From Candidatus Pacearchaeota archaeon (lineage in GTDB: Archaea; Nanobdellota; Nanobdellia; Pacearchaeales; GW2011-AR1), in assembly GCA_017609915.1 (NCBI GenBank), contig JAFCDA010000001.1, positions 5,033-69,032 on the forward strand: 64,000 nt of DNA. The letters are read 5' to 3'. A model generated the notes under the pieces. The model was not told the DNA's origin. It made no database searches and saw only the letters and a list, made by a program, of their open reading frames with translations. The translations under genes were made by a program, and so were the position numbers. Every line of letters begins with the position of its first letter. The stretch's first letter is position 1. This document shows, in pieces, positions 5,055-59,671 of the stretch.

Positions 5055-5254
5055 TCTGTTTCAATCATATCTTCTGCTAATCTTATAACAACCACTGGCT
5101 TGTTATCTTTTAGAGATTCTGCTTCTATTCTACATTTAACTCTTCCTTGTTTAATTCCTTTTCCAGAAGTCTCTATTTTTTTAACAACTGCTTTATCTCC
5201 ATAAACAAGAATTATATCACCTTGTTTTATTTCTGAAGCTTTTTTCTGTGCCAT
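5051..5254 (-). CDS. aIF5A N-terminal (SH3-like) domain-only protein
   Basis: IKQGDIILVYGDKAVVKKIETSGKGIKQGRVKCRIEA aligns by eye with the archaeal aIF5A region KVGxYVxIDGxPCxIVDISxSKPGKHGxAKARV. Only 67 aa, with no C-terminal OB domain. Confidence 0.45.
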   Translation of the reverse strand: MAQKKASEIKQGDIILVYGDKAVVKKIETSGKGIKQGRVKCRIEAESLKDNKPVVVIRLAEDMIETE

Positions 5255-5344
5255 ACAAAAATACTACAAGCTCATTATATAAAGTTTTTTATACTCCCAA
5301 CCCTTTAAAAAAGGCTTGACCTAAATTTTAAAATCATAGAAAAT

Positions 5345-6492: not shown

Positions 6493-8037
6493 TTAAACCC
6501 TATACCTAACTTTATCATACCAGACTTTAAAATCTAAAGGAAGGCTTCTATAAGTTGGTTTTAATATTCTTTCTCTTATTAAATCATAAATACTCACGAA
6601 TTTTAAAATAAATAATGTATTAGAGGGGTTTGTTAGATTTTTTTTAATTCTTTCTGGTTTAAGAAGATGGTTAATCAAAGAATTTGATATTATTCCAAAT
6701 CTTTTTTCTGTTACAACTCCCCTCATTAAATTTAAAATTAAAACTAAATACATGTTTTTTCTTTTTAATAAAATATGCGCTCCTCTGTCCCAATAATTAA
6801 GAGTAACTGCTGAATCTTTTGGAGTTTTTATTATGCCTTCATTTACAGCTCTTTCATGAAGTTTAGATCCATGAAAAAAAACTAAGTTATTAACAGATAA
6901 AAAATAAGGTTTTGGAAGCTTTTGCAATAATCTTATCATATTTATTATATCTTCTGGTTTTTCATAAGGATTGCAAGTTATGACATCATACATAACAGCT
7001 AATTTGTCCTTGTACTTGTTTAAGATTTTTGCTGCATTAATTACTTCTTTATTTGTTTGATTCCTGTGATAAACTTCTTTATTAACTCTTTCTTCTCCTT
7101 GAATTCCCATAATTATATCTGTACACCCTGCATTTACAAGAAGTTTTATTTTTTCATCTGAAACAGTATGGGGATCTGTAAGACATTTAAACCTAAGATT
7201 AACTTTTTCTTTGTATTTTTTTGTGAATTCTCTTATTTGCTCAATAGGTCTTAAAGAAAAAGTGTCATCTCTTATATCAAAATAACTTAAACTTGGAAAT
7301 TTTTCTTTTAATTTTAAAATCCCTTTAATTATATAATCCACACTATGCCATCTTACTATTTTTTTTCTTTTTCCCTTGTAAAGTTCATTTAATAAACTAT
7401 TACTACAATAATCACACCCATAAGGGCATCCTCTTCCTGTTAAGAAAAATATTGCTCCATCTAAATCTTGTTCTCTAAATCTTCTTAATCTATGATTGTC
7501 AAGAATATAATGTGTTTTTGTATCATAATCTGGAAGAGGAATAGAATCTAAATTATCTATTAAAAGTCTTACAGGGTTTTTAATTATCTTTTCCGTTTCT
7601 TTGTTTTTAATCCAAAGATTTTTTATTTTTTTAATTGATTTATTTTTTTCTATTGCATTAACTAAATCAAGAATTGTTTCTTCTCCTTCTCCAACACATA
7701 CAATATTACAATATTTAATACATTCTTTTGGTGAAATTGTTGCATGAATTCCTCCCCAAACAATTGGGATTTTTACACATGTTTTTTCTAAATATTTTAT
7801 TATCTGAATAGCTCTTGGTGCAGTTGAAACAAAAGAACTAATTCCAATTAATTCTGAATCTTTGCAAATTTGATAAAGTTGTCTTAATTCCTGTCTTTTG
7901 TAAAACTTAGAATAATCTTCACTTAGGTTCATAAAAACTAATTTAACATCATGTCCTGCTTTTTTTAAAACAGCAGAAATTGTCCTTATTCCTTGATCTG
8001 AAGGATATGTTGCTGCAGAAATTAAAGTTATTTTCAT
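6493..8037 (-). CDS. B12-binding-domain radical SAM protein (1 of 3)
   Basis: N-terminal Rossmann/B12-like domain (MKITLISAATYP, CVGEGEE). Radical SAM cluster motif CPYGCDYC. 514 aa. Confidence 0.8.
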   Translation of the reverse strand: MKITLISAATYPSDQGIRTISAVLKKAGHDVKLVFMNLSEDYSKFYKRQELRQLYQICKDSELIGISSFVSTAPRAIQIIKYLEKTCVKIPIVWGGIHATISPKECIKYCNIVCVGEGEETILDLVNAIEKNKSIKKIKNLWIKNKETEKIIKNPVRLLIDNLDSIPLPDYDTKTHYILDNHRLRRFREQDLDGAIFFLTGRGCPYGCDYCSNSLLNELYKGKRKKIVRWHSVDYIIKGILKLKEKFPSLSYFDIRDDTFSLRPIEQIREFTKKYKEKVNLRFKCLTDPHTVSDEKIKLLVNAGCTDIIMGIQGEERVNKEVYHRNQTNKEVINAAKILNKYKDKLAVMYDVITCNPYEKPEDIINMIRLLQKLPKPYFLSVNNLVFFHGSKLHERAVNEGIIKTPKDSAVTLNYWDRGAHILLKRKNMYLVLILNLMRGVVTEKRFGIISNSLINHLLKPERIKKNLTNPSNTLFILKFVSIYDLIRERILKPTYRSLPLDFKVWYDKVRYRV

Positions 8038-39592: not shown

Positions 39593-39625
39593 TTTAATTT
39601 ATTATCAGAACTCTTTTTAAATTTA

Positions 39626-39709
39626 TGCAGAGGATAGGATTCGAACCTATGAAGGCACTAAGCCACAAGATCTTGAGTCTTGCCCGTTTGACCACTCCGG
39701 AACCTCTGC
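39626..39709 (-). tRNA. tRNA-Leu (anticodon CAA), long variable arm
   Basis: Minus strand GCAGAGG TT CCGG AGTGGTCAAA CGGG CAAGA CTCAAGA TCTTG TGGCTTAGTGCCTTC ATAGG TTCGAAT CCTAT CCTCTGC A. Confidence 0.9.
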
Positions 39710-39751
39710 TTAAATATTATGAAAAAGCCAATAATTGTTTATATAAAAACC

Positions 39752-39761
39752 TTTATAAAGA
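39752..39761 (+). promoter_or_regulatory. putative TATA box for 5S rRNA
   Basis: ctttataaag is centred ~25 nt upstream of the inferred 5S 5' end (39781). Confidence 0.5.
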
Positions 39762-39780
39762 GTTATTTTTAAGTTATATT

Positions 39781-39894
39781 GGAGACGACCATAATAATCT
39801 GGTCACACCTGATCCGATTTCCAACTCAGAAGTTAAGCAGATTATGTTTAAGGTATTAGTTTCAGAGATGAAGTGAAGCCATAAAGTTGTCTTC
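39781..39894 (+). rRNA. 5S ribosomal RNA (stand-alone)
   Basis: GGAGACGACCATA...CACACCTGATCCGATTTCCAACTCAGAAGTTAAGC... matches conserved 5S loop/helix signatures. The 5' GGAGACGAC pairs with the 3' GTTGTCTTC. Confidence 0.8.
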
Positions 39895-39964
39895 TTTATA
39901 TTCCAAACAACTTTATATAAAAAGCCAGTATCTTATAAAATATAAATAAACATAAAAATAAAAA

Positions 39965-40162: not shown

Positions 40163-40332
40163 TATTTCATTATATTAATAGCCTATAAGCTTAATTAAGA
40201 GATTATCTGAGTAGCTTAAAAAACTCCTCTTCTAAACTTCAAATTTTATAGAGATATTAATATATTGTATTAACTCCTTAGAAGTAACAAACAAGAAACA
40301 TTTATAAGGGGGTTTTTCTTGGGGAAATTAAG

Positions 40333-40659
40333 ATGAAAACAAAGAAACATATCCAAAAAGTTAGAAATGCAATCAATAAATTTGATATAGTTACTACTGA
40401 TTTATTTGCTCAAAGCGTGATACAAAGAGCTAAGGCCTTAGAGGAATCTGTGGATGAGGGTTGGTTTATACCTTTTCTTAAAATATCTGAGGTAACTGGA
40501 GCAAGCGTAGCTACCTATGGAGCTTTAACAAATAAACCTTATGTGATTGGGGCTGGGGCAGGATTTGCTTTAATGGCAGGAATTTATCATTTATTAATAA
40601 ATAGAGTTGTGAAAAAACAAAATGAAACAGACAATAATTCAATTAAAAAACGTACATAA
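40333..40659 (+). CDS. small protein with C-terminal Gly-zipper TM helix
   Basis: 108-aa ORF with VIGAGAGFALMAGIYHLL. Overlaps the ABC ATPase start by 38 nt. Confidence 0.4.
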   Translation: MKTKKHIQKVRNAINKFDIVTTDLFAQSVIQRAKALEESVDEGWFIPFLKISEVTGASVATYGALTNKPYVIGAGAGFALMAGIYHLLINRVVKKQNETDNNSIKKRT

Positions 40660-41296
40660 AGACTATAAAATAGGGGATACTATAATCCCTGCTGTTGATG
40701 GTGTAGATTTAGAAATAAAACAAGGAGATTTTATTGCTATTGTTGGACCTTCTGGAAGTGGTAAAAGTACCATGATGAATCTTGTTGGGGCATTAGATTT
40801 AGCTACAAAAGGAGATATTTTTCTAGATGATGTTAATATTGAACATTTACATGAATCTGAATTAGCTCAACTAAGAGGAAAGAAAATAGGATTTGTATTT
40901 CAAACATTTAATTTAATTCCTACACTTACAGCACTTGAAAATGTTATGTTACCTATGATTTTTCAAAATGTTGAATTAGAAGAAAGAAAAGAAAGAGCTA
41001 CTAAGCTTTTAGCAGATTTGGGATTAGGTGAAAGATTAAAACACCTTCCAAGTGAATTATCAGGTGGAGAAAGACAAAGAGTTGCACTTGCTCGTGCACT
41101 TGCAAATGATCCTGAAGTTATTTTAGCTGATGAACCTACAGGTAATCTTGATTCAAAAAGAAGCAAAGAAATTGCTGAAATGTTTGTTAAATTAAGCAAA
41201 CAAGGAAAGACAATAATCCTTGTTACACATGATTTAGATATAGCAAAGTATGCTAGTAAAGTTTATAAACTAAAAGATGGGAGGATAAGTAAGTAA
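40622..41296 (+). CDS. ABC transporter ATP-binding protein (MacB/LolD type)
   Basis: Walker A GPSGSGKST, signature LSGGERQRVALARAL, Walker B ILADEPTGNLD. Confidence 0.9.
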   Translation: MKQTIIQLKNVHKDYKIGDTIIPAVDGVDLEIKQGDFIAIVGPSGSGKSTMMNLVGALDLATKGDIFLDDVNIEHLHESELAQLRGKKIGFVFQTFNLIPTLTALENVMLPMIFQNVELEERKERATKLLADLGLGERLKHLPSELSGGERQRVALARALANDPEVILADEPTGNLDSKRSKEIAEMFVKLSKQGKTIILVTHDLDIAKYASKVYKLKDGRISK

Positions 41297-41297
41297 A

Positions 41298-41501
41298 ATG
41301 GAATATAGACAAAATAAATTAGGATCTTTGTTAACTACAATGGGATTACTTATGGTAGTTGCTTTTGGAACAGTGAGGGGTTATAAAAGATGCCAAAGAG
41401 AATGCGAACAAATTACAAGAAATTTTGAAGTATCAGATATAAATGTTAAAGATATTGATAAAGGTGGTTTAAACGATATTATTAAATTTGGAAATAGATA
41501 A
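41298..41501 (+). CDS. small single-TM protein
   Basis: 67 aa with LLTTMGLLMVVAFG. Tightly packed in the ABC operon. Confidence 0.4.
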   Translation: MEYRQNKLGSLLTTMGLLMVVAFGTVRGYKRCQRECEQITRNFEVSDINVKDIDKGGLNDIIKFGNR

Positions 41502-41721
41502 AATGACAGAAAAATTAACTGAAAAATTGAACTTTTCATTTACAACAGATCATAATGGGAAAACATATGGAGTTATACCTAAAGGCAATGAAGGACATCT
41601 TGATTGGAGCAAGAGTGATGTTTATGAAATAATTAATGAAAAAACAAACCAGTATGTTGAAGTAATGGGCCCTATAAAATCTCAAATAATGGAAAAATTT
41701 GATAATGCAAGGAAAAAATAA
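41488..41721 (+). CDS. small soluble hypothetical protein
   Basis: 77-aa ORF overlapping the upstream ORF by 14 nt. Confidence 0.35.
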   Translation: MEIDKMTEKLTEKLNFSFTTDHNGKTYGVIPKGNEGHLDWSKSDVYEIINEKTNQYVEVMGPIKSQIMEKFDNARKK

Positions 41722-41766
41722 AATGAAAACTAAAATAATTGTTAAATTGGATGATAAGTAAGTAAA

Positions 41767-42117
41767 ATGGGAATAAAAACAGTAAAAAACTTTTTAAATC
41801 CTATATATCATATGATCAATTATATTGATCTTGACAATAGAGGGTTGTCTGATGCAAAATTTGTTGTAAAAGGCTGTGCATCTATTTTATTAGGGGGTTT
41901 AGAATCTGTATTATACGGAAGTTTATTAGGTGGAGTAAGTGTAGCTGTTTTTGGTGGAGATTCTAAAAAAATAATTATAGGCTCTGCTGTGGGGGCAGTT
42001 GCTGGGGTCGGTGCTTGGGCAACTAAAGGAATACAATTAGGAATCATGGAAAATGAAAATCCTAAGAAATATAAACAATATTTAGCAAAAATAAAATACA
42101 AAACAAAATTAAAATGA
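41767..42117 (+). CDS. small Gly-zipper membrane protein
   Basis: GGLESVLYGSLLGGVSVAVFGG...GSAVGAVAGVGAWA. Confidence 0.4.
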   Translation: MGIKTVKNFLNPIYHMINYIDLDNRGLSDAKFVVKGCASILLGGLESVLYGSLLGGVSVAVFGGDSKKIIIGSAVGAVAGVGAWATKGIQLGIMENENPKKYKQYLAKIKYKTKLK

Positions 42118-43031
42118 AAACTCAAACACTAACACTAATAACCGCATTATTCATCATTCTTAGTTTAGCAAGTATTCAAGCTTTAGTAATTGATTCTGTA
42201 AAAATGTATCCTAGTGAAATAGCACCTGGTGAAACAGCTGTTATAACTGTGGGTATTGAAAATGATGGAGATGAAGATGTTACAAATGTTGCAGTTATTT
42301 TAGATTTAACAGGGATTATTGAATCAGACATTCCTGGAGCACCTTTAACAGCTTTAGATATCCCTTTTGCGCCTTATGAATCAAGTTCAGAACATAGTTT
42401 TGATGAAATTGAAGAAGATGAAACAGATTATGCTGAATTTGAAATCATAGCATTAGGTGATGCTAAATCAGGAGTATATAAAATTCCTTTAAGAATAAGT
42501 TATACAGAAGATGATGAATTAAAAACTAGAAATTCTTTAATTGGGGTTACTGTTAATTCAAAACCTATAATTGGAGTTAATATTGAAGATGGCTTATTGT
42601 TAAAACCTCAAGAAAATGAAATAGATATTAAAGTAATAAATAAAGGATTATCAGATGTAAGATTTTTAGAAGTTGAAATTGGAAGCTCTACTTATTTTGA
42701 TGTATTATCTAATAAACAAGTTTATATTGGAGATATTGATAGTGATGATTTTGATACTGCTGATTTTAAGATTTATTTTAAGAGCAATGCTCCAAGTACT
42801 TTAACTCTTCCTATAAGTATTACATATAAAGATGCTGTTAATAATGAATATAATGAAGATTTTGATATACAAGTAAAAGTTTATACAAGAGATAAAGCTA
42901 TTGAGCTTGGTTTATTGGAAAGAAGTTATACTAGTATATATGTGGGTGTTGTTGTTGGTGTTATAATCCTTTGGATAATTTATAGGAAAATAAAGAAAAG
43001 AAGAAAGTTGAAAAAGAGGAAGGAGGGTTAA
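42114..43031 (+). CDS. secreted beta-rich (CARDB/COG1361-like) protein with C-terminal TM anchor
   Basis: Signal-like N-terminus, two Ig-like repeats by eye (PGETAVITVGIENDGDEDVTNV; IDIKVINKGLSDVRF). C-terminal TM plus a KKRRKLKKRKEG tail. Confidence 0.45.
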   Translation: MKTQTLTLITALFIILSLASIQALVIDSVKMYPSEIAPGETAVITVGIENDGDEDVTNVAVILDLTGIIESDIPGAPLTALDIPFAPYESSSEHSFDEIEEDETDYAEFEIIALGDAKSGVYKIPLRISYTEDDELKTRNSLIGVTVNSKPIIGVNIEDGLLLKPQENEIDIKVINKGLSDVRFLEVEIGSSTYFDVLSNKQVYIGDIDSDDFDTADFKIYFKSNAPSTLTLPISITYKDAVNNEYNEDFDIQVKVYTRDKAIELGLLERSYTSIYVGVVVGVIILWIIYRKIKKRRKLKKRKEG

Positions 43032-43034
43032 AAG

Positions 43035-43307
43035 ATGGGATTCGATTGTTATATTACCATTTTAAGAGATAATAGAGGTTTAATTGATTGGTTGAGAAAG
43101 GATTATAATCAAGAAGAAATAGATAAATTTGGTGATTTGGATGTTATCGAAATATTTAGAGGTGATTTAAAGAGTGTTCAAGAAAAAGCACATGATTATA
43201 TAGAACAACATAAAGGAAAAGAGAAAGATTTAAAGGCATTAAATAGAATAGAAATTTCAAGTAGATTAGAACAATTATCTAAAACGCAAGCAGAAGTGTC
43301 TGCTTAG
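43035..43307 (+). CDS. small hypothetical protein
   Basis: 90-aa ORF within the operon. Confidence 0.35.
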   Translation: MGFDCYITILRDNRGLIDWLRKDYNQEEIDKFGDLDVIEIFRGDLKSVQEKAHDYIEQHKGKEKDLKALNRIEISSRLEQLSKTQAEVSA

Positions 43308-43316
43308 GAGCTCAAA

Positions 43317-43568
43317 ATGAAAGATGAAAAATATATAGATCATATAAAAAAATTTGTCGCTGAAAAACAAGGAGGATATAATAAAATAGGCTTAGTTAAA
43401 GAATTAAGAACCTATGGATTAATAAAAGATTCAAGAGATCCAGGACTTATACCTGCTAAAAATATTGTAGAAAGAATGATTCAAGAGGGGATATTAGAAA
43501 TGAAAACTCAAGAAGTAGGGGCATTTTTACAAATGAATTTACCTAAAAGGGCATTTGTTGGGTGGTAA
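43317..43568 (+). CDS. small hypothetical protein
   Basis: 83-aa ORF overlapping the permease start by 7 nt. Confidence 0.35.
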   Translation: MKDEKYIDHIKKFVAEKQGGYNKIGLVKELRTYGLIKDSRDPGLIPAKNIVERMIQEGILEMKTQEVGAFLQMNLPKRAFVGW

Positions 43569-44785
43569 TCAAAATGATTAAAGATTTCTTTGTATTGGGT
43601 TTAAACAATTTGAAAAGGCGTAGACTTAGAAGCTGGCTTACTATGATTGGAATTTTTATTGGAATTGCTGCTGTTGTTGCGCTGATATCATTAGGGCAAG
43701 GACTTCAAGATTATATTTCAGAGGAATTTGAAAAATTAGGTGCTGATAAAATAATTATTCAACCAAGAGGTATGGGGCCTCCTGGAACAGCAGGACCCAG
43801 CTTAATTTTGACGAGTGATGATTTAGAAACTATTGAAAAAGTTCGGGGTGTTAAATGGGCTATAGGTTTCTTAATTAAACAAGGACAAGCTATGTATAAA
43901 GATGAAGCAGGAATTGGTTTTGCAATTGGTTCTAATCCAGAAGATTTAGAACTTATGTCTGAAATACAAAGTTTTGAAATCTTTGATGGAAGAGATTTAA
44001 AACATGGAGACAAGTACAAATTAGTTGTAGGTTATAATCATATTTATGGAGATATTTGGGAAAAACCAATGCAAATAGGAAGCACAATAGAGGTTGAAGG
44101 TTATGATTTTAAAGTTATTGGAGTTTTAGATAAAATAGGAAATCCTATTGATGATAGTTCTCTTTATATGTCAAAAGATGTTTTAAAAGAAATTTTAGAC
44201 ATAGAAGATGAGGAAAGTCAAATTATGGTTAAAACAGCAGAAGGATTTAATCCTGAAGAAGTTGCAGATACAATTGAAAGAAAATTAAGAAAATCAAGAG
44301 GAGAAAAAGAAGATCAAGAAACATTTAATGTTCAAACTTCTGAACAATTATTAGAAACTTTTCAAAGTATTTTTGCTGTTGTTCAAGGAGTTTTAGTTGG
44401 AATAGCTGCTATTTCTCTTTTAGTTGGAGGAATAGGGATTATGAATACAATGTATACTTCTGTAATAGAAAGAACAAAAGAGATTGGAACTATGAAAGCT
44501 ATTGGTGCTAAAAATTCTCATGTTTTATTATTATTCTTATTAGAATCAGGATTATTAGGATTAGTAGGGGGTTTAATTGGTGTTGGAATAGGTGTAGGTT
44601 TAGCTAAAAGTGCAGAATACTTGGCAGCAGTTGCAATTGGAACAGATTTATTACAAGCATCTATGAGTCCTGTAATATTAGGTGGAGCATTAGCATTTTC
44701 ATTTGTAATAGGAACATTATCAGGAATCTTACCTGCATTACAAGCATCAAAACTTAAACCTGCTGATGCATTGAGATTTGAGTGA
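43562..44785 (+). CDS. ABC transporter permease (MacB/FtsX family)
   Basis: N-terminal TM, MacB-like extracytoplasmic domain, FtsX region GIMNTMYTSVIERTKEIGTMKAIGA, C-terminal LKPADALRFE. Confidence 0.85.
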   Translation: MVIKMIKDFFVLGLNNLKRRRLRSWLTMIGIFIGIAAVVALISLGQGLQDYISEEFEKLGADKIIIQPRGMGPPGTAGPSLILTSDDLETIEKVRGVKWAIGFLIKQGQAMYKDEAGIGFAIGSNPEDLELMSEIQSFEIFDGRDLKHGDKYKLVVGYNHIYGDIWEKPMQIGSTIEVEGYDFKVIGVLDKIGNPIDDSSLYMSKDVLKEILDIEDEESQIMVKTAEGFNPEEVADTIERKLRKSRGEKEDQETFNVQTSEQLLETFQSIFAVVQGVLVGIAAISLLVGGIGIMNTMYTSVIERTKEIGTMKAIGAKNSHVLLLFLLESGLLGLVGGLIGVGIGVGLAKSAEYLAAVAIGTDLLQASMSPVILGGALAFSFVIGTLSGILPALQASKLKPADALRFE

Positions 44786-44833
44786 ATTTTTTAGAAAAAT
44801 ATTTAAACCAAAGTAATTGTATATTATTTTAAA

Positions 44834-45031
44834 ATGAAGCGGTGTATTTATTGTAAATGTGGTTTATCTGAAGAATCTGTTATTGATTTTTGTGAAAGAT
44901 GTGGACATGGTGCTTTTGGAGAAAAAATGTTTAAGGTGATTGTTCAAAACATGAAAGACGCCAAGGAAAGAGGGGACTTACATCAATAAGAAACCTTTTT
45001 AAAGCTCTTATTTTTAAGGATTTTATATTAA
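44834..45031 (+). CDS. small zinc-ribbon protein (not in ORF track; 3' end uncertain)
   Basis: MKRCIYCKCGLSEESVIDFCERCGHGAFGEKMFKVI... contains two CxxC pairs. After the T-run at 44940-44942, another frame encodes a more protein-like tail (VQNMKDAKERGDLHQ*). Confidence 0.35.
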
Positions 45032-47020: not shown

Positions 47021-47668
47021 ATGCCAAAAAGAAAACGTAAAAAATATTCAAGACCGCAAAGGCCTTTTGATAAAGCAAGAATACAAGAAGAAAATCTTCT
47101 TAGAGACAAATATGGACTTAAAAATAAAAAAGAAATATGGAAAGCAGATGCTGCAATAGCAAGGATTAGAAATCTTGTAAAACAATTAATTACAAAACCT
47201 GAAGAAGAGAAAAAAGCATTTGTTAAAAAACTCCAAACAAAAGGATTTAAAGTTAATAATATTGCAGATTCTTTAGCTTTAGATAAAGAAGATTGGTTAA
47301 AAAGAAGATTACAAACAATAGTGTTTAGTAAAAAATTAGCAAGAACACCTAAACAAGCAAGACAATTAGTTGCTCATAAACAAGTATCTATTGGAAATAA
47401 AACAATTAATATTCCTTCATACCAAGTTAGTTTAGAACAAGAGCCTGAAATAAAATTAAATATTGTATTAAAAAAACCTAAAAATTCTAAAAAAGATTCT
47501 AAAGAAAAAATAGAAGAAGCTAAAAGTGAAGAGATTAAACCTGTTGAAGAGATTGCTGAAAAAACTGAAACTAAAGAACAAACCCCTAAACCTATAGAAA
47601 AACAACCTGAACAACCAATAACAAATACTAATAAAATAGAAAAAGTTAAAGAGAAAGAAAATGCCTAA
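47021..47668 (+). CDS. rps4: 30S ribosomal protein S4 (uS4) with K/E-rich C-terminal extension
   Basis: KKYSRPQRPFDKARIQEE...LARTPKQARQLVAHKQVSIGNKTINIPSYQV. Confidence 0.9.
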   Translation: MPKRKRKKYSRPQRPFDKARIQEENLLRDKYGLKNKKEIWKADAAIARIRNLVKQLITKPEEEKKAFVKKLQTKGFKVNNIADSLALDKEDWLKRRLQTIVFSKKLARTPKQARQLVAHKQVSIGNKTINIPSYQVSLEQEPEIKLNIVLKKPKNSKKDSKEKIEEAKSEEIKPVEEIAEKTETKEQTPKPIEKQPEQPITNTNKIEKVKEKENA

Positions 47669-47897
47669 AAATCTTAAAAAAATAATCGGAACAGGAATAC
47701 TCTTATTAGCTTTAGGTGGAAATATGAATAAAAACCTTAATCCTATTCAAACAGGGGTTGCTCAAAAAAGATATATTAAACAACCAAATAATGTTGAAAA
47801 AGCAATCTATATGGGGGCTTTTGTAGGAACTTCCCTATTAGCAACTTTAGGAATTCATAAACTTCTAACTAAATATAGAACTAATGAAAATGCCTAA
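47661..47897 (+). CDS. 78-aa 2-TM protein inserted between rps4 and rps11
   Basis: IIGTGILLLALGG and AIYMGAFVGTSLLATLGI. Bounded by the 15-bp direct repeats 47657..47671 and 47886..47900. Confidence 0.45.
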   Translation: MPKNLKKIIGTGILLLALGGNMNKNLNPIQTGVAQKRYIKQPNNVEKAIYMGAFVGTSLLATLGIHKLLTKYRTNENA

Positions 47898-48444
47898 AAA
47901 AGAAACTAAAGAAAAAATTGAGAAAGAAAAACCAAAGGTAGAAGTTAAAAAAAATAAATCAACTAATATCTCTCAAAAATCTGAAGAAAAGCCTATTGAA
48001 GATAAAAAATTAATGGGTAAAGATCCTGAAGAGAAAAAAGAGACAAAAATTGAAAAAAGAAAAGAGAAAAAAGATAGAATAGGTATTCTTAATATTTATA
48101 CTACTTTTAATAATACAATTATGAATCTAACAGACTTATCTGGAAAAAGTATTGCTAAATTTGGTGGAGGACAATCAACAAAACAAGATAGATTAAAAGC
48201 TAATCCAACAATAGCAATGTTTGTTTCTCAAAGAATAGCTGAAGAAGCAAGAGACAATGGAATAACAGGGTTTTATGTTAAAGTAAGGGCTAAAACAGGG
48301 CAAAACAACCCTGGACCAGGAGCTCATGCAGCAATTAAATCACTTACAAGAGCAGGGTTTAGAATTTTAAGTATTATGGATACTACAAAGATTCCTAGAG
48401 GAGGGCCTAAAAAGAAAGGAGGAAGAAGAGGAAGAAGACCATAA
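47884..48444 (+). CDS. rps11: 30S ribosomal protein S11 (uS11) with long K/E-rich N-terminal extension
   Basis: GILNIYTTFNNTIMNLTDLSGK...GPGAHAAIKSLTRAGFRILSIMDTTKIPRGG. Start may be 47884 or 47890, or the internal Met (MGKD). Confidence 0.85.
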   Translation: MKMPKKETKEKIEKEKPKVEVKKNKSTNISQKSEEKPIEDKKLMGKDPEEKKETKIEKRKEKKDRIGILNIYTTFNNTIMNLTDLSGKSIAKFGGGQSTKQDRLKANPTIAMFVSQRIAEEARDNGITGFYVKVRAKTGQNNPGPGAHAAIKSLTRAGFRILSIMDTTKIPRGGPKKKGGRRGRRP

Positions 48445-58331: not shown

Positions 58332-59150
58332 TTATAAATCATCTAATGGATTTTTAATAGATTTAAGTTGTTCATGACTTATATGAGTATAAATCTGAGT
58401 TGTTGCAATACTTGAATGCCCAAGTAATTCTTGGATTTTTCTTAAATCTGTTCCCTTATCTAAAAGATGTGTGGCAAAAGAATGGCGTAAGGTGTGTGGA
58501 TGGACTGATTTATCAATACCTGCTCTTTGAGCTGTTTTTTGAACAATTTTTTGAATATTTCTTGTAGTCAAGGGTTTATTTTTTGAAAAAACATATATCC
58601 AATCTGAATTTTTTTTAATAAATTTATCAAGTTTTTTTGATAGTTTTTTTGATAAAATAAGCATCCTATCTTTTCCCCCTTTACCAGAACGAACCCAACC
58701 AATATTTTCATTAAAATCTAAATTTGTTGGTTTTAAATTAACTATTTCAGAAACCCTAAGTCCAGAAGAATATAATAATTGAATAATTAATTTGCTTTTT
58801 AGATTATTTGAACTTTCAATTAAGTCAGTTGTTTCTTGTCTAGTTAAAACAATTGGTATTTTATTTTCTTTTTTTGGGCGTTTAACTCCTGCTGTAGGAT
58901 CTTTTCCTAAAACATTAGAATATGCAAATTTAATTGAAGCTAAAAATAAAATAATTGAACTTGAAGCCCTATCTGTCATTTTATCTGCAAGAAAATATTT
59001 TACATCTTGTTGCTCAATTTGTTCTGGTTGTTTTTTTGCATGATTTAATAATTGATTATTAAGTTCTAAATAGTTTTTCAAAGTATAAGGTGATAATTTA
59101 GAAATTTTAATTTCTGTTTCAAGATGTTTTAGAAATTCTTGCTTATCCAT
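58332..59150 (-). CDS. xerA: tyrosine recombinase (XerA/XerC-like)
   Basis: GLRVSE, HTLRHSFATHLL, LLGHSSIATTQIYTH catalytic signature. Met at 59150 preferred because it removes the overlap with the VIT gene. Confidence 0.8.
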   Translation of the reverse strand: MDKQEFLKHLETEIKISKLSPYTLKNYLELNNQLLNHAKKQPEQIEQQDVKYFLADKMTDRASSSIILFLASIKFAYSNVLGKDPTAGVKRPKKENKIPIVLTRQETTDLIESSNNLKSKLIIQLLYSSGLRVSEIVNLKPTNLDFNENIGWVRSGKGGKDRMLILSKKLSKKLDKFIKKNSDWIYVFSKNKPLTTRNIQKIVQKTAQRAGIDKSVHPHTLRHSFATHLLDKGTDLRKIQELLGHSSIATTQIYTHISHEQLKSIKNPLDDL

Positions 59151-59191
59151 GATATAGATAGTGCGAACTTCTTTAAAAGGTTTTTTATAAT

Positions 59192-59671
59192 TTAAGAAAA
59201 AATACTTGCTATCCAAATTCCAGTATAATGTGTTGCAAAAATAACCAAAACAGTTATAACCAAATGCTCTGAAATAGCCTTAAAAGCAGAGGTTTTTTTC
59301 CATTTAGAAGTATAATAACTTAAGATAGTTATTAATAATAATCCCCAGATTATACTAATAATTATTGCGCTTCTTAGATTTAAAAATATAAATGGAATTA
59401 AAAAAGTTAAGGAAAATAAAAGTTTAGATAAAAAAGTTGCACCTGTTGATTCCCAAATTTCTTTTTTAGTTGTTTTCCTATTTCCTGATTCTTCAGAAAT
59501 ATGAATCCCTAATGAATCTGAAAAAGCATCTGCAATTGCAATTGTTAAAATTCCTCCAAGAATAATCATTTTAGAATGTGTGCTTGAATTTAACCCTATA
59601 ATTAATCCAAGAGTTGTTATTATTCCAGAAGTTAATCCAAAGCTCATCCCTTTTCTTATTGATATCTTCAT
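59192..59671 (-). CDS. VIT1/CCC1 family membrane protein (short form)
   Basis: GLTSGIITTLGLIIGL, IAIADAFSDSLGIHISEES. Confidence 0.6.
   Translation of the reverse strand: MKISIRKGMSFGLTSGIITTLGLIIGLNSSTHSKMIILGGILTIAIADAFSDSLGIHISEESGNRKTTKKEIWESTGATFLSKLLFSLTFLIPFIFLNLRSAIIISIIWGLLLITILSYYTSKWKKTSAFKAISEHLVITVLVIFATHYTGIWIASIFS

Follow-up and report, generated by a model that had tools for sequence, protein, structure and literature searches.

The 64-kb stretch of Candidatus Pacearchaeota DNA analyzed here (the window) is AT-rich (~27% GC) and carries, between positions 40333 and 44785, an operon for a MacB-type ATP-binding cassette (ABC) transporter. The listing of open reading frames (ORFs) places nine of them there, tightly packed on the plus strand and together covering 98.6% of the segment: genes for an ATPase, a CARDB-like surface protein and a permease, accompanied by six small ORFs. 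An earlier note on this DNA had suggested that the small proteins may form a multi-component envelope machine with the transporter or a toxin/immunity-like set. Comparison with related loci revealed that the conserved unit consists of the three larger genes, and the small ORFs are probably exchangeable cassettes that have settled at the operon junctions. The features of the operon are as follows.

40301..40307, plus strand: TATA-like box TTTATAA, putative operon promoter, 26 nt upstream of the first ATG
40333..40659, plus strand: p108, ORFan with a soluble N-terminal part, a Gly/Ala-rich hydrophobic segment (~71-90), and a basic tail; codon score 0.47
40622..41296, plus strand: ABC ATPase with a LolD/MacB/FtsE-like nucleotide-binding domain (NBD), core component 1; Pfam ABC_tran 2e-33
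41298..41501, plus strand: p67, ORFan with an N-terminal transmembrane (TM) helix; codon score 0.47
41503..41721, plus strand: p72, soluble ORFan (a 77-aa ORF in the earlier note); codon score 0.49
41720..41770, plus strand: relic junction, a copy of the CARDB-like gene start AAAATGAAAACT joined to a copy of the ATPase 3' end and junction GATAAGTAAGTAAAATGG (18 nt exact)
41767..42117, plus strand: p116, ORFan with two Gly/Ala/Val-rich GxxxG segments and a basic tail; codon score 0.54
42114..43031, plus strand: CARDB-like type-I membrane protein, 305 aa, core component 2
43035..43307, plus strand: p90, soluble ORFan; codon score 0.52
43288..43305, plus strand: 7-bp hairpin AAGCAGA-AGTG-TCTGCTT in the p90 tail, ending in a TAG stop that overlaps an AGGAG Shine-Dalgarno-like motif
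43317..43568, plus strand: p83, soluble ORFan; codon score 0.63
43574..44785, plus strand: MacB-type permease (TM1, extracytoplasmic MacB_PCD, FtsX TM2-4), core component 3
44787..44792, plus strand: oligo-T run, putative terminator, directly after the permease stop

All of these ORFs lie on the plus strand where the earlier note had placed them, apart from two start codons that had to be moved. For the permease, the start shared by all relatives and the public gene calls is ATG 43574 (403 aa, MIKDFF...) instead of GTG 43562; p72 begins at ATG 41503, directly after the p67 stop codon (TAA-A-ATG), and not at TTG 41488, and it is the 72-aa product that appears in the public record.

The assignment of the transporter to the MacB type is upheld by both of its ABC components. 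The ATPase translation contains Walker A, signature, Walker B, and H-loop sequences (GPSGSGKS, LSGGERQR, ILADEPT, and VTHD), and its best NCBIfam models are LolD (2e-73), the MacB NBD (2e-68), and FtsE, all of which score under their equivalog cut-offs. Amino acid identity between this ATPase and those of close relatives is 85-94%. The permease matches Pfam MacB_PCD over residues 24-240 (1e-27) and FtsX over residues 281-400 (1e-21), while its best matches in the PDB are MacB (5gko, 6e-36) and Spr0695 (5xu1, 2.5e-34), with full-length alignment to 5gko, 5nik, and 5lil.

The third core gene encodes the 305-aa protein that the earlier note had described as an immunoglobulin (Ig)-like protein with a signal peptide and a C-terminal anchor, a description borne out by the AlphaFold2 (AF2) model. 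In this model (pLDDT 89.9), two beta-sandwich domains are framed by a signal-peptide helix and a C-terminal TM helix; the parts assigned are a signal peptide at residues 1-23, Ig-like beta-sandwiches at 24-147 and 153-258, a TM helix at 273-296, and a Lys/Arg-rich tail. According to the alignment and the model, the signal helix ends in a conserved small-x-A motif, and the protein is presumably exported to the cell surface. Its match to Pfam CARDB (PF07705, cell adhesion related domain found in bacteria) is a borderline pass, at 23.0 bits against a cut-off of 22.7, and the homologues P0048 and P0090 reach 30.1 and 29.1 bits. More than 200 homologues of 285-315 aa were collected, with a mean column identity of 60% and 53% in alignments A1 and A2, respectively. 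A Foldseek search of the PDB returned only generic tandem-Ig matches and no specific functional fold relative, and no ORF of the operon matches the HlyD/membrane-fusion protein family in Pfam or NCBIfam. Ratios of nonsynonymous to synonymous substitution rates (dN/dS) of 0.09 for the ATPase (against locus L005), 0.27 for the CARDB-like gene, and 0.14 for the permease indicate that the core genes evolve under purifying selection.

These three genes stay together across a wide range of relatives. A total of 101 related loci (L001-L101) from metagenome-assembled genomes of Pacearchaeota, Woesearchaeota, and Nanoarchaeota were compared. Wherever at least 3 kb of flank was available on both sides, the ATPase and permease genes were found within 3 kb of the CARDB-like gene in 44 of 49 loci, and the order ATPase-CARDB-permease holds in 60 of the 68 complete loci, with gaps mostly between -4 and ~100 nt as read from the ORF-based table (gaps extrapolated from tblastn overestimate the ATPase-CARDB spacing in distant loci, where the CARDB-like N-termini are longer). 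The conserved unit is the ATPase-CARDB-permease triad, widespread in DPANN archaea, and not the ABC pair. Given this linkage and order, the expectation of directly neighbouring ABC genes fails for this lineage, in which the CARDB-like gene normally separates them; the view of the earlier note that COG1361-like proteins occur beside ABC pairs holds for DPANN in the same 44 of 49 loci.

The more distant DPANN relatives carry a PadR-like or other winged-helix regulator upstream of the triad. The loci noted are L074, L086, L078, L080, L087, and L092, with a ~165-aa ORF upstream of the ATPase gene, and L075, L077, L084, L088, and L089. A second MacB permease follows the triad in 26 loci and a second CARDB-like paralogue is found in 7. 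The distant versions are regulated, heterodimeric forms of the same triad machine, and the co-occurrence of the second copies weakly hints at one-to-one pairing between permease and Ig-like protein.

The six small ORFs differ from the core genes in distribution, and their sequences have the marks of real protein-coding genes. At the local stop-codon frequency of 0.088 per codon, the chance that an ORF of 67-116 codons stays open is 2e-3 to 2e-5 for each. A log-odds model of codon usage, trained on 40 long ORFs outside the region, gives the six ORFs 0.47-0.63 bits/codon in their own frame and strongly negative values in the other five, compared with 0.43 +/- 0.11 for the long genes of the window and -0.10 +/- 0.34 for spurious overlapping ORFs. 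Because of these length odds and codon scores the small ORFs are taken to be coding, and with a GC content of 0.29-0.35 against 0.28-0.32 in the core genes their composition is host-like.

Searches for their relatives were negative throughout. In tblastn, none of the six found a match at E<=1e-3 in loci L001-L098 or at E<=1e-2 in L099-L101. Each is a singleton 90% cluster in a collection of 15 billion proteins and is known only from this 70-kb contig; p90 matched only itself among 5.8 billion clusters, as did p116 in an exhaustive phmmer search of 1.84 billion representatives. No family match was obtained for the small ORFs in Pfam, NCBIfam, PHROGs, or PADLOC, and no paralogue of any of them lies elsewhere in the window. 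A viral, phage, or plasmid origin was rejected after p83, p116, and p108 found no relatives among the IMG/VR viral contigs, the insert DNA gave no blastn match in phage or plasmid collections, and PHROGs gave no significant match. An identity as defence or toxin-antitoxin genes was likewise rejected, since PADLOC and PHROGs returned no significant recurrent family for the small ORFs or for 45 inserted ORFs of the related loci.

Two structural suggestions for individual ORFs also fell away. GxxxG repeats are indeed visible in p108 and p116, as the earlier note had seen, and p116 nevertheless reaches only E=0.13 (12.4 bits against a cut-off of 28.9) with Pfam Gly-zipper_YMGG, with no match for p108; the resemblance to Gly-zipper proteins appears to be compositional only. 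The two are not paralogues of each other (BLASTP E=7.3). A winged-helix fold for p83, suggested by a guess from its sequence and a weak RQC match, was discarded after a single-sequence AF2 model of pLDDT 69 yielded no Foldseek match at E<1.

Absence of the small ORFs from the relatives can be told apart from divergence because vertical orthologues would be visible at the distances involved: the dS between the window and L005 is 0.38-0.62, and intergenic DNA still aligns at 76-90%. By these comparisons the six ORFs are strain-specific ORFans and not conserved subunits of the transporter. The gene-order comparison that the earlier note had called for therefore goes against the small proteins as machine parts: none is conserved in the 101 loci, and close relatives are either compact (L017) or carry unrelated ORFs at the same junctions (L005, L099, L100, L101, L018, and L003). 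An envelope machine remains plausible for the triad.

Alignment with the closest relatives shows where the extra DNA lies. In blastn, the core genes are 82-90% identical to those of L005 and L017, and the additional DNA forms clean indels at the start/stop junctions (40350-40612, 41304-42106, and 43022-43566). The first indel is the body of p108, whose start occupies the exact position of the ATPase start in L017 and whose end overlaps the ATPase start by 38 nt. The ATG of p67 stands at the exact position of the CARDB-like gene ATG in L005 and L017 (..AAGTAAAATG..), and p116 overlaps the start of the CARDB-like gene (ATGA). Behind that gene, p90 starts 3 nt after its stop codon, the p83 start is a near-copy of the permease start region (CTCAAAATGA--AAGAT vs ATCAAAATGATTAAAGAT), and the permease ATG follows 5 nt after p83. 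In L017 and L018 it is the ATPase start codon that follows the TTTATAA element, with the same spacing and leader; in the window it is p108.

The relic junction at 41720..41770 separates the cassette p67+p72 from the cassette p116 and holds a mini-ORF of 12 codons, MKTKIIVKLDDK* (41723-41761). Such a joint would be expected had the two cassettes been acquired independently and then stacked; each stacked cassette would be bounded by a native junction, e.g., via unequal recombination between alleles. Two repeats accompany it. The copies of D12 (41277-41301 and 41746-41770) agree at 23 of 25 nt, 18 of them in an uninterrupted core, and those of D7 (41704-41735 and 42095-42126) are 81% identical. 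A general rule that each cassette starts on a duplicated downstream start region was rejected: at 38 cassette junctions from 14 loci the score was 8.7, against a background of 8.7, and such duplications are not distinguishable from the generic AAAATGAAA start context. D12, D7, and the repeat of p78 are the only ones that are significant individually.

p78 is a 78-aa ORF with hydrophobic segments that lies outside the operon, between the genes for S4 and S11 (window positions 47661-47897). It is an ORFan as well, a singleton cluster with no match in the related loci. The S11 start region, GAAAATGCCTAAAAA, stands on either side of it as an exact 15-nt direct repeat (47657-47671 and 47886-47900). 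The insertion is of the same type as those in the ABC operon, and the true S11 start is likely ATG 47890 (MPKKE..).

A possible trace of cassette loss was seen in L005, where positions 5237-5316, between the conserved promoter and the ATPase start, hold a 10-codon mini-ORF (MKQPFLEKKL*) on the ancestral start position together with an 8-nt match, AGTTGTGA, to the 3' end of p108. This mini-ORF may, on slight grounds, be the remnant of a deleted cassette.

Turnover at the junctions is rapid among close relatives. Ten genomes whose ATPases are 85-94% identical to that of the window display nine different junction configurations; the only repeated one is that of L003 and L007, with one ORF at each internal junction (the L007 ORF between ATPase and CARDB-like gene being deduced from a 260-nt gap). 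Six layouts are given below, in which A is the ATPase, C the CARDB-like gene, P the permease, and numbers denote small ORFs.

Window: 108 / A / 67, 72, 116 / C / 90, 83 / P
L005: A / C / 119 / P
L017: A / C / P
L099: A / 89 / C / P
L100: A / 96 / C / 113, 129, 75 / P
L101: A / 118, 107 / C / 118 / P

In L018, L003, and L049 each junction holds one to three unrelated ORFs, while L017, L001, L023, and most of the 68 complete loci have an intact triad and no cassettes. Inserts were counted between ATPase and CARDB-like gene in ~14 of the 68 loci and between CARDB-like gene and permease in ~12, concentrated in the clade nearest to the window. At control junctions between ribosomal-protein genes, gaps of at least 200 nt occur in 0/39, 0/37, 2/34, 6/29, 1/15, and 6/25 loci; these gaps are much shorter, at most 460 nt, so that the control junctions are less variable without being immune. 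A survey of 45 inserted ORFs from 15 loci recognised only DUF5680 (three members) and one RNA_pol_A_CTD-like/HhH-like domain, with no defence, phage, or transport families among them. Most of these ORFs are soluble, lack a signal peptide, and are heterogeneous or belong to no family.

Recombination within the operon is indicated by the incongruent identities of its genes (window 40622-44785), listed for L017, L049, and L099. L017 is the farthest of the ten genomes in the ATPase (84.8%) and the nearest in the permease (93.8%), and L049 shares 89.3% of the ATPase, 58.5% of the CARDB-like protein, and 52.8% of the permease with the window, which argues for breakpoints inside the operon. Cassettes can also move laterally: L018_107 (6920-7243) and L049_100 (6923-7225) are 77% identical at the amino acid level with a dS of 0.39, far more similar than the flanking permeases (50%). 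Cassettes common to several genomes have dN/dS values of 0.27-0.51, indicative of relaxed but still purifying selection.

The most probable explanation of these results is a conserved three-part MacB-type envelope machine at whose operon junctions ORFan cassettes without promoters land and are exchanged, carried along by the operon promoter and by translational coupling. By analogy with MacB and LolCDE, the ATPase dimer would drive the large extracytoplasmic domain of the permease (mechanotransmission), and the transporter would act on something outside the cytoplasmic membrane. The Ig-like protein would be the fixed extracytoplasmic partner, either as an adaptor replacing the bacterial membrane-fusion protein or as the substrate that is handled. 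The cassettes sit at start/stop junctions, without promoters of their own, and would depend on the single promoter of the operon, and the junctions would act as recombination joints at which cassettes are gained, replaced, and lost quickly. The spacing at the cassettes is of the coupling type (TAA-A-ATG, ATGA overlaps, and TAG-GAG-N6-ATG); because they lack promoters and show this spacing, they are most likely co-expressed passengers. TTTATAA at 40301..40307 would be the operon promoter, judged by archaeal promoter architecture. Archaeal terminators are oligo-T tracts, and the run at 44787..44792 is likely the terminator of the operon. A sigma-70 promoter scan, a model not applicable to archaea, gave no more than the shuffled expectation.

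Placed among known systems, the triad belongs to the type VII MacB/LolCDE ABC transporters, represented by E. coli MacAB-TolC and S. pneumoniae Spr0693-0694-0695. It shares with them a LolD/MacB-like NBD and the permease architecture, in which a large extracytoplasmic MacB_PCD lies between an N-terminal TM helix and an FtsX-type C-terminal TM bundle. NBD and permease are encoded by separate genes, as in LolCDE and the Gram-positive systems, and the operon also codes for a third, extracytoplasmic partner, as in MacB-type tripartite systems. Unlike in MacAB-TolC, this partner is no HlyD/MacA-type membrane-fusion protein but a membrane protein of type I that carries two Ig-like domains of the CARDB type, a difference that bears on the tripartite subclass and not on the MacB superfamily. 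The archaeal host has a single membrane and hence no TolC-like exit duct, and the partner gene lies between the NBD and permease genes, unlike in MacB-type systems. With the archaeal COG1361/CARDB surface proteins, the Ig-like protein has in common a CARDB match in its first domain (23-30 bits), a beta-sandwich fold, a signal peptide, a predicted surface location, and the linkage to an ABC pair. It is distinguished from them by its compact size of ~300 aa, its two domains, and its C-terminal TM anchor with basic tail, uniform over more than 200 homologues, and by the lack of repeats and of a long S-layer-type protein.

ORFans commonly enter genomes beside native genes, from whose promoters they are expressed, and insertion inside an operon is the rare case (Price, Arkin & Alm 2006, PMC1480536). 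The ORFans of the window resemble those described there in being lineage-restricted and devoid of homologues, in their common orientation and close spacing, and presumably in using the native operon promoter. They differ in that they fill the two internal junctions and the promoter-proximal position simultaneously, and in that the same junctions have been filled independently by different cargo in many related genomes. It is this recurrent multi-site occupation of the internal junctions of one operon that is unusual, ORFans beside native genes on native promoters being already known (PMC1480536). A literature search found, in the library covered, no description of the triad, of the cassette hot spot, or of a functional study of the two-domain CARDB-like protein.

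Several points weigh against the landing-site explanation. The cassettes are concentrated in this operon, with multi-gene inserts of up to 1.1 kb, and the bias towards its junctions could reflect a functional tie to the transporter instead of mere tolerance. Three of the six window ORFs look membrane-associated by their hydrophobic or GxxxG segments, as would fit accessories of an envelope machine. Eight otherwise unrelated cassettes carry a common C-terminal tail, five of them with the same hairpin, which is not expected of mere passengers. That the small ORFs are co-transcribed and translated is deduced from spacing, and the proposed role of the CARDB-like protein from gene linkage and predicted fold. 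The global searches covered p90 and p116 of the six; p108, p67, p72, and p83 were checked in the related loci and by exact-cluster look-ups, p83 and p108 in viral contigs as well.

The tail, LEQL[SA]K..AE.S[AS], occurs in p90 and in ORFs of L100, L018, L049 (two), L003, L007, and L021, all of them located just 3' of the CARDB-like gene. A pattern search matched it in 8 of 4021 ORFs, and L100 was added by a separate comparison. In p90 it makes up the last 13-15 residues (..SRLEQLSKTQAEVSA); behind it come a TAG that overlaps an AGGAG motif and the ATG of the next gene. The sites are as follows.

Window: 43263-43316
L049: 7190-7240 and 7572-7622
L021: 7337-7385
L003: 7253-7300
L007: 4799-4850
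L018: 7200-7260
L100: 2340-2390

Five of the tails (window, L049, L021, L003, and L007) contain the same hairpin, AAGCAGA-N4-TCTGCTT (~-8 kcal/mol, z -0.8 to -3.8), which is absent from the native junction of L017. The last codons of the tail resemble the 3' end of the CARDB-like gene in L005. The element could be the scar of insertion into that 3' end, an RNA or DNA element for coupling, processing, or recombination, or a functional peptide; eight related copies are too few to separate these. Tail and hairpin together give a hint of a functional link between cassettes and pump.

Such a link is central to the strongest alternative, in which the small proteins have a function, as rapidly evolving accessories of the transporter or as its clients, and would be strain-specific peptides that are secreted, inserted into the membrane, or of a toxin/immunity type. 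Their export, their assembly at the surface, or protection against them would be the task of the MacB-type machine, and their diversity would stem from the interactions of these episymbiotic archaea with hosts and competitors. The enrichment of cassettes at both internal junctions relative to neighbouring conserved junctions would follow, as would the membrane-associated features of half of the window ORFs and the purifying selection on shared cassettes, and the tail could be a docking or recognition peptide. The ATPase also scores on bacteriocin-exporter models (L_ocin_972_ABC, 4e-61; DarD, 5e-66), though this reflects generic NBD similarity. However, relatives such as L017, L001, and L023, like most of the 68 loci, keep an intact triad without cassettes, so the machine does not need them, and most of the inserted ORFs in the 15 loci are soluble proteins without signal peptide and of heterogeneous or no family. 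No MacB-type transporter is known to carry folded cytoplasmic proteins across the membrane. Similar ORFan insertions occur at ribosomal-protein junctions unrelated to transport, and the tail may be a nucleic-acid feature (hairpin plus Shine-Dalgarno motif) or a recombination scar. On balance, this alternative is rather unlikely.

Less probable still, and best regarded as speculative, is a combined proposal in which the operon of Pacearchaeota-like DPANN archaea is built to display or express hypervariable small proteins; strains would exchange the cassettes through recombination at conserved boundary elements, and the products would be handled by or dock on the Ig-like/MacB machine. The boundary elements would be the copied start/stop junctions and, behind the CARDB-like gene, the tail with its hairpin and TAG-GAG, and the products would comprise membrane peptides and soluble proteins with the common C-terminal tail. 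If true, the platform would give each strain its own repertoire for the surface, for host interaction, or for antagonism, and would amount to a counterpart of the integron that lacks an integrase, is embedded in an operon, and is coupled to an envelope machine.

A dedicated integron-like cassette platform in the stricter sense, with site- or structure-specific recombination at a conserved boundary element and promoterless cassettes behind a strong promoter, is very unlikely. Like integron arrays, the operon stacks promoterless, unrelated small ORFs behind one promoter, all oriented alike; turnover is high and boundary sequences are repeated (D12 and D7 in the window; tail, hairpin, and TAG-GAG two or three times in L049 and L018), and one cassette has moved laterally between divergent backgrounds. 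Unlike integrons, it has no attC sites (imperfect palindromes of ~60-140 nt), for which there is no room in inter-ORF gaps of -14 to 9 nt apart from the 45-nt relic, and the sole structure found is the 7-bp hairpin in the coding tail of p90. That hairpin is short and confined to a few closely related genomes, so that common descent could explain it, and the boundary repeats vary between junctions, against one specific site. The start-duplication score at the 38 cassette junctions equals its background. Neither in nor beside the operon is there an IntI-type integrase or other recombinase; the single tyrosine recombinase of the window is Xer-like and 13.5 kb away. Moreover, the cassettes sit between genes of a functional operon and appear to be translationally coupled to them, again unlike in integrons.

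That the small ORFs are non-functional (decaying remnants, chance ORFs, or chimeras of metagenome assembly) is the least credible alternative: the lack of homologues, the origin of each ORF from this one contig, and the relic mini-ORF at 41723-41761 would fit it, but the chance probabilities for each of the six, codon usage equal to that of bona fide genes in the correct frame only, exact start/stop coupling at every junction, a GC content matching the flanks, and the selection on analogous cassettes elsewhere all argue against it, and chimeric joins would not fall exactly between a stop and a start codon five times.

The preferred explanation, a conserved triad with exchangeable cassettes at its junctions, corrects the annotation of a widespread DPANN gene cluster, for which the unit of study becomes NBD, Ig-like anchored protein, and MacB permease. 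In archaea, the Ig-like partner may take the place of the bacterial membrane-fusion adaptor, which makes the role of MacB pumps in single-membrane archaea testable. The locus is also an unusually clean case of gene turnover inside an operon, with exact breakpoints, junction relics, mosaic flanks, and lateral cassette movement. DPANN genomes are rich in small ORFans, and a defined hot spot is well suited to studying their arrival, expression, and loss, and any role they may have between symbiont and host.

The neighbourhood of the operon is a housekeeping one. The gene order is tRNA-Leu, 5S rRNA, rpoN, the ABC operon, a 51-aa Cys-rich ORF, and the genes for L21e, an Rpb4-like protein, DUF655, S13, S4, S11, and RpoD. 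An Rfam scan found nothing inside the operon and only the tRNA and 5S rRNA upstream of it. The features closest to the operon are the following.

39626-39709, minus strand: tRNA-Leu(CAA), Rfam
39781-39895, plus strand: 5S rRNA, Rfam, 62 bits
39965-40162: rpoN
44834..44989, plus strand: p51, Cys-rich CxxC..CxxC (zinc-ribbon-like) small protein of no assigned family, with its own A/T-rich region upstream

An 83-aa ORF on the plus strand at 39625-39876 is spurious, with a codon score of -0.06 and overlaps with both the opposite-strand tRNA-Leu(CAA) and the 5S rRNA. The Xer-like gene (58332-59216, minus strand) matches Phage_integrase at 1.9e-46, has an N-terminal SAM-like domain, and shows no evident link to the cassettes. 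p51, in turn, is a conserved syntenic neighbour and not a strain-specific cassette: its tblastn matches extend to 38 related loci as well as L099 and L101, with absence from L005 and L017, its dN/dS is 0.11, and its usual place is directly after the ABC triad, or after the CARDB-like gene where the ABC genes lie elsewhere.

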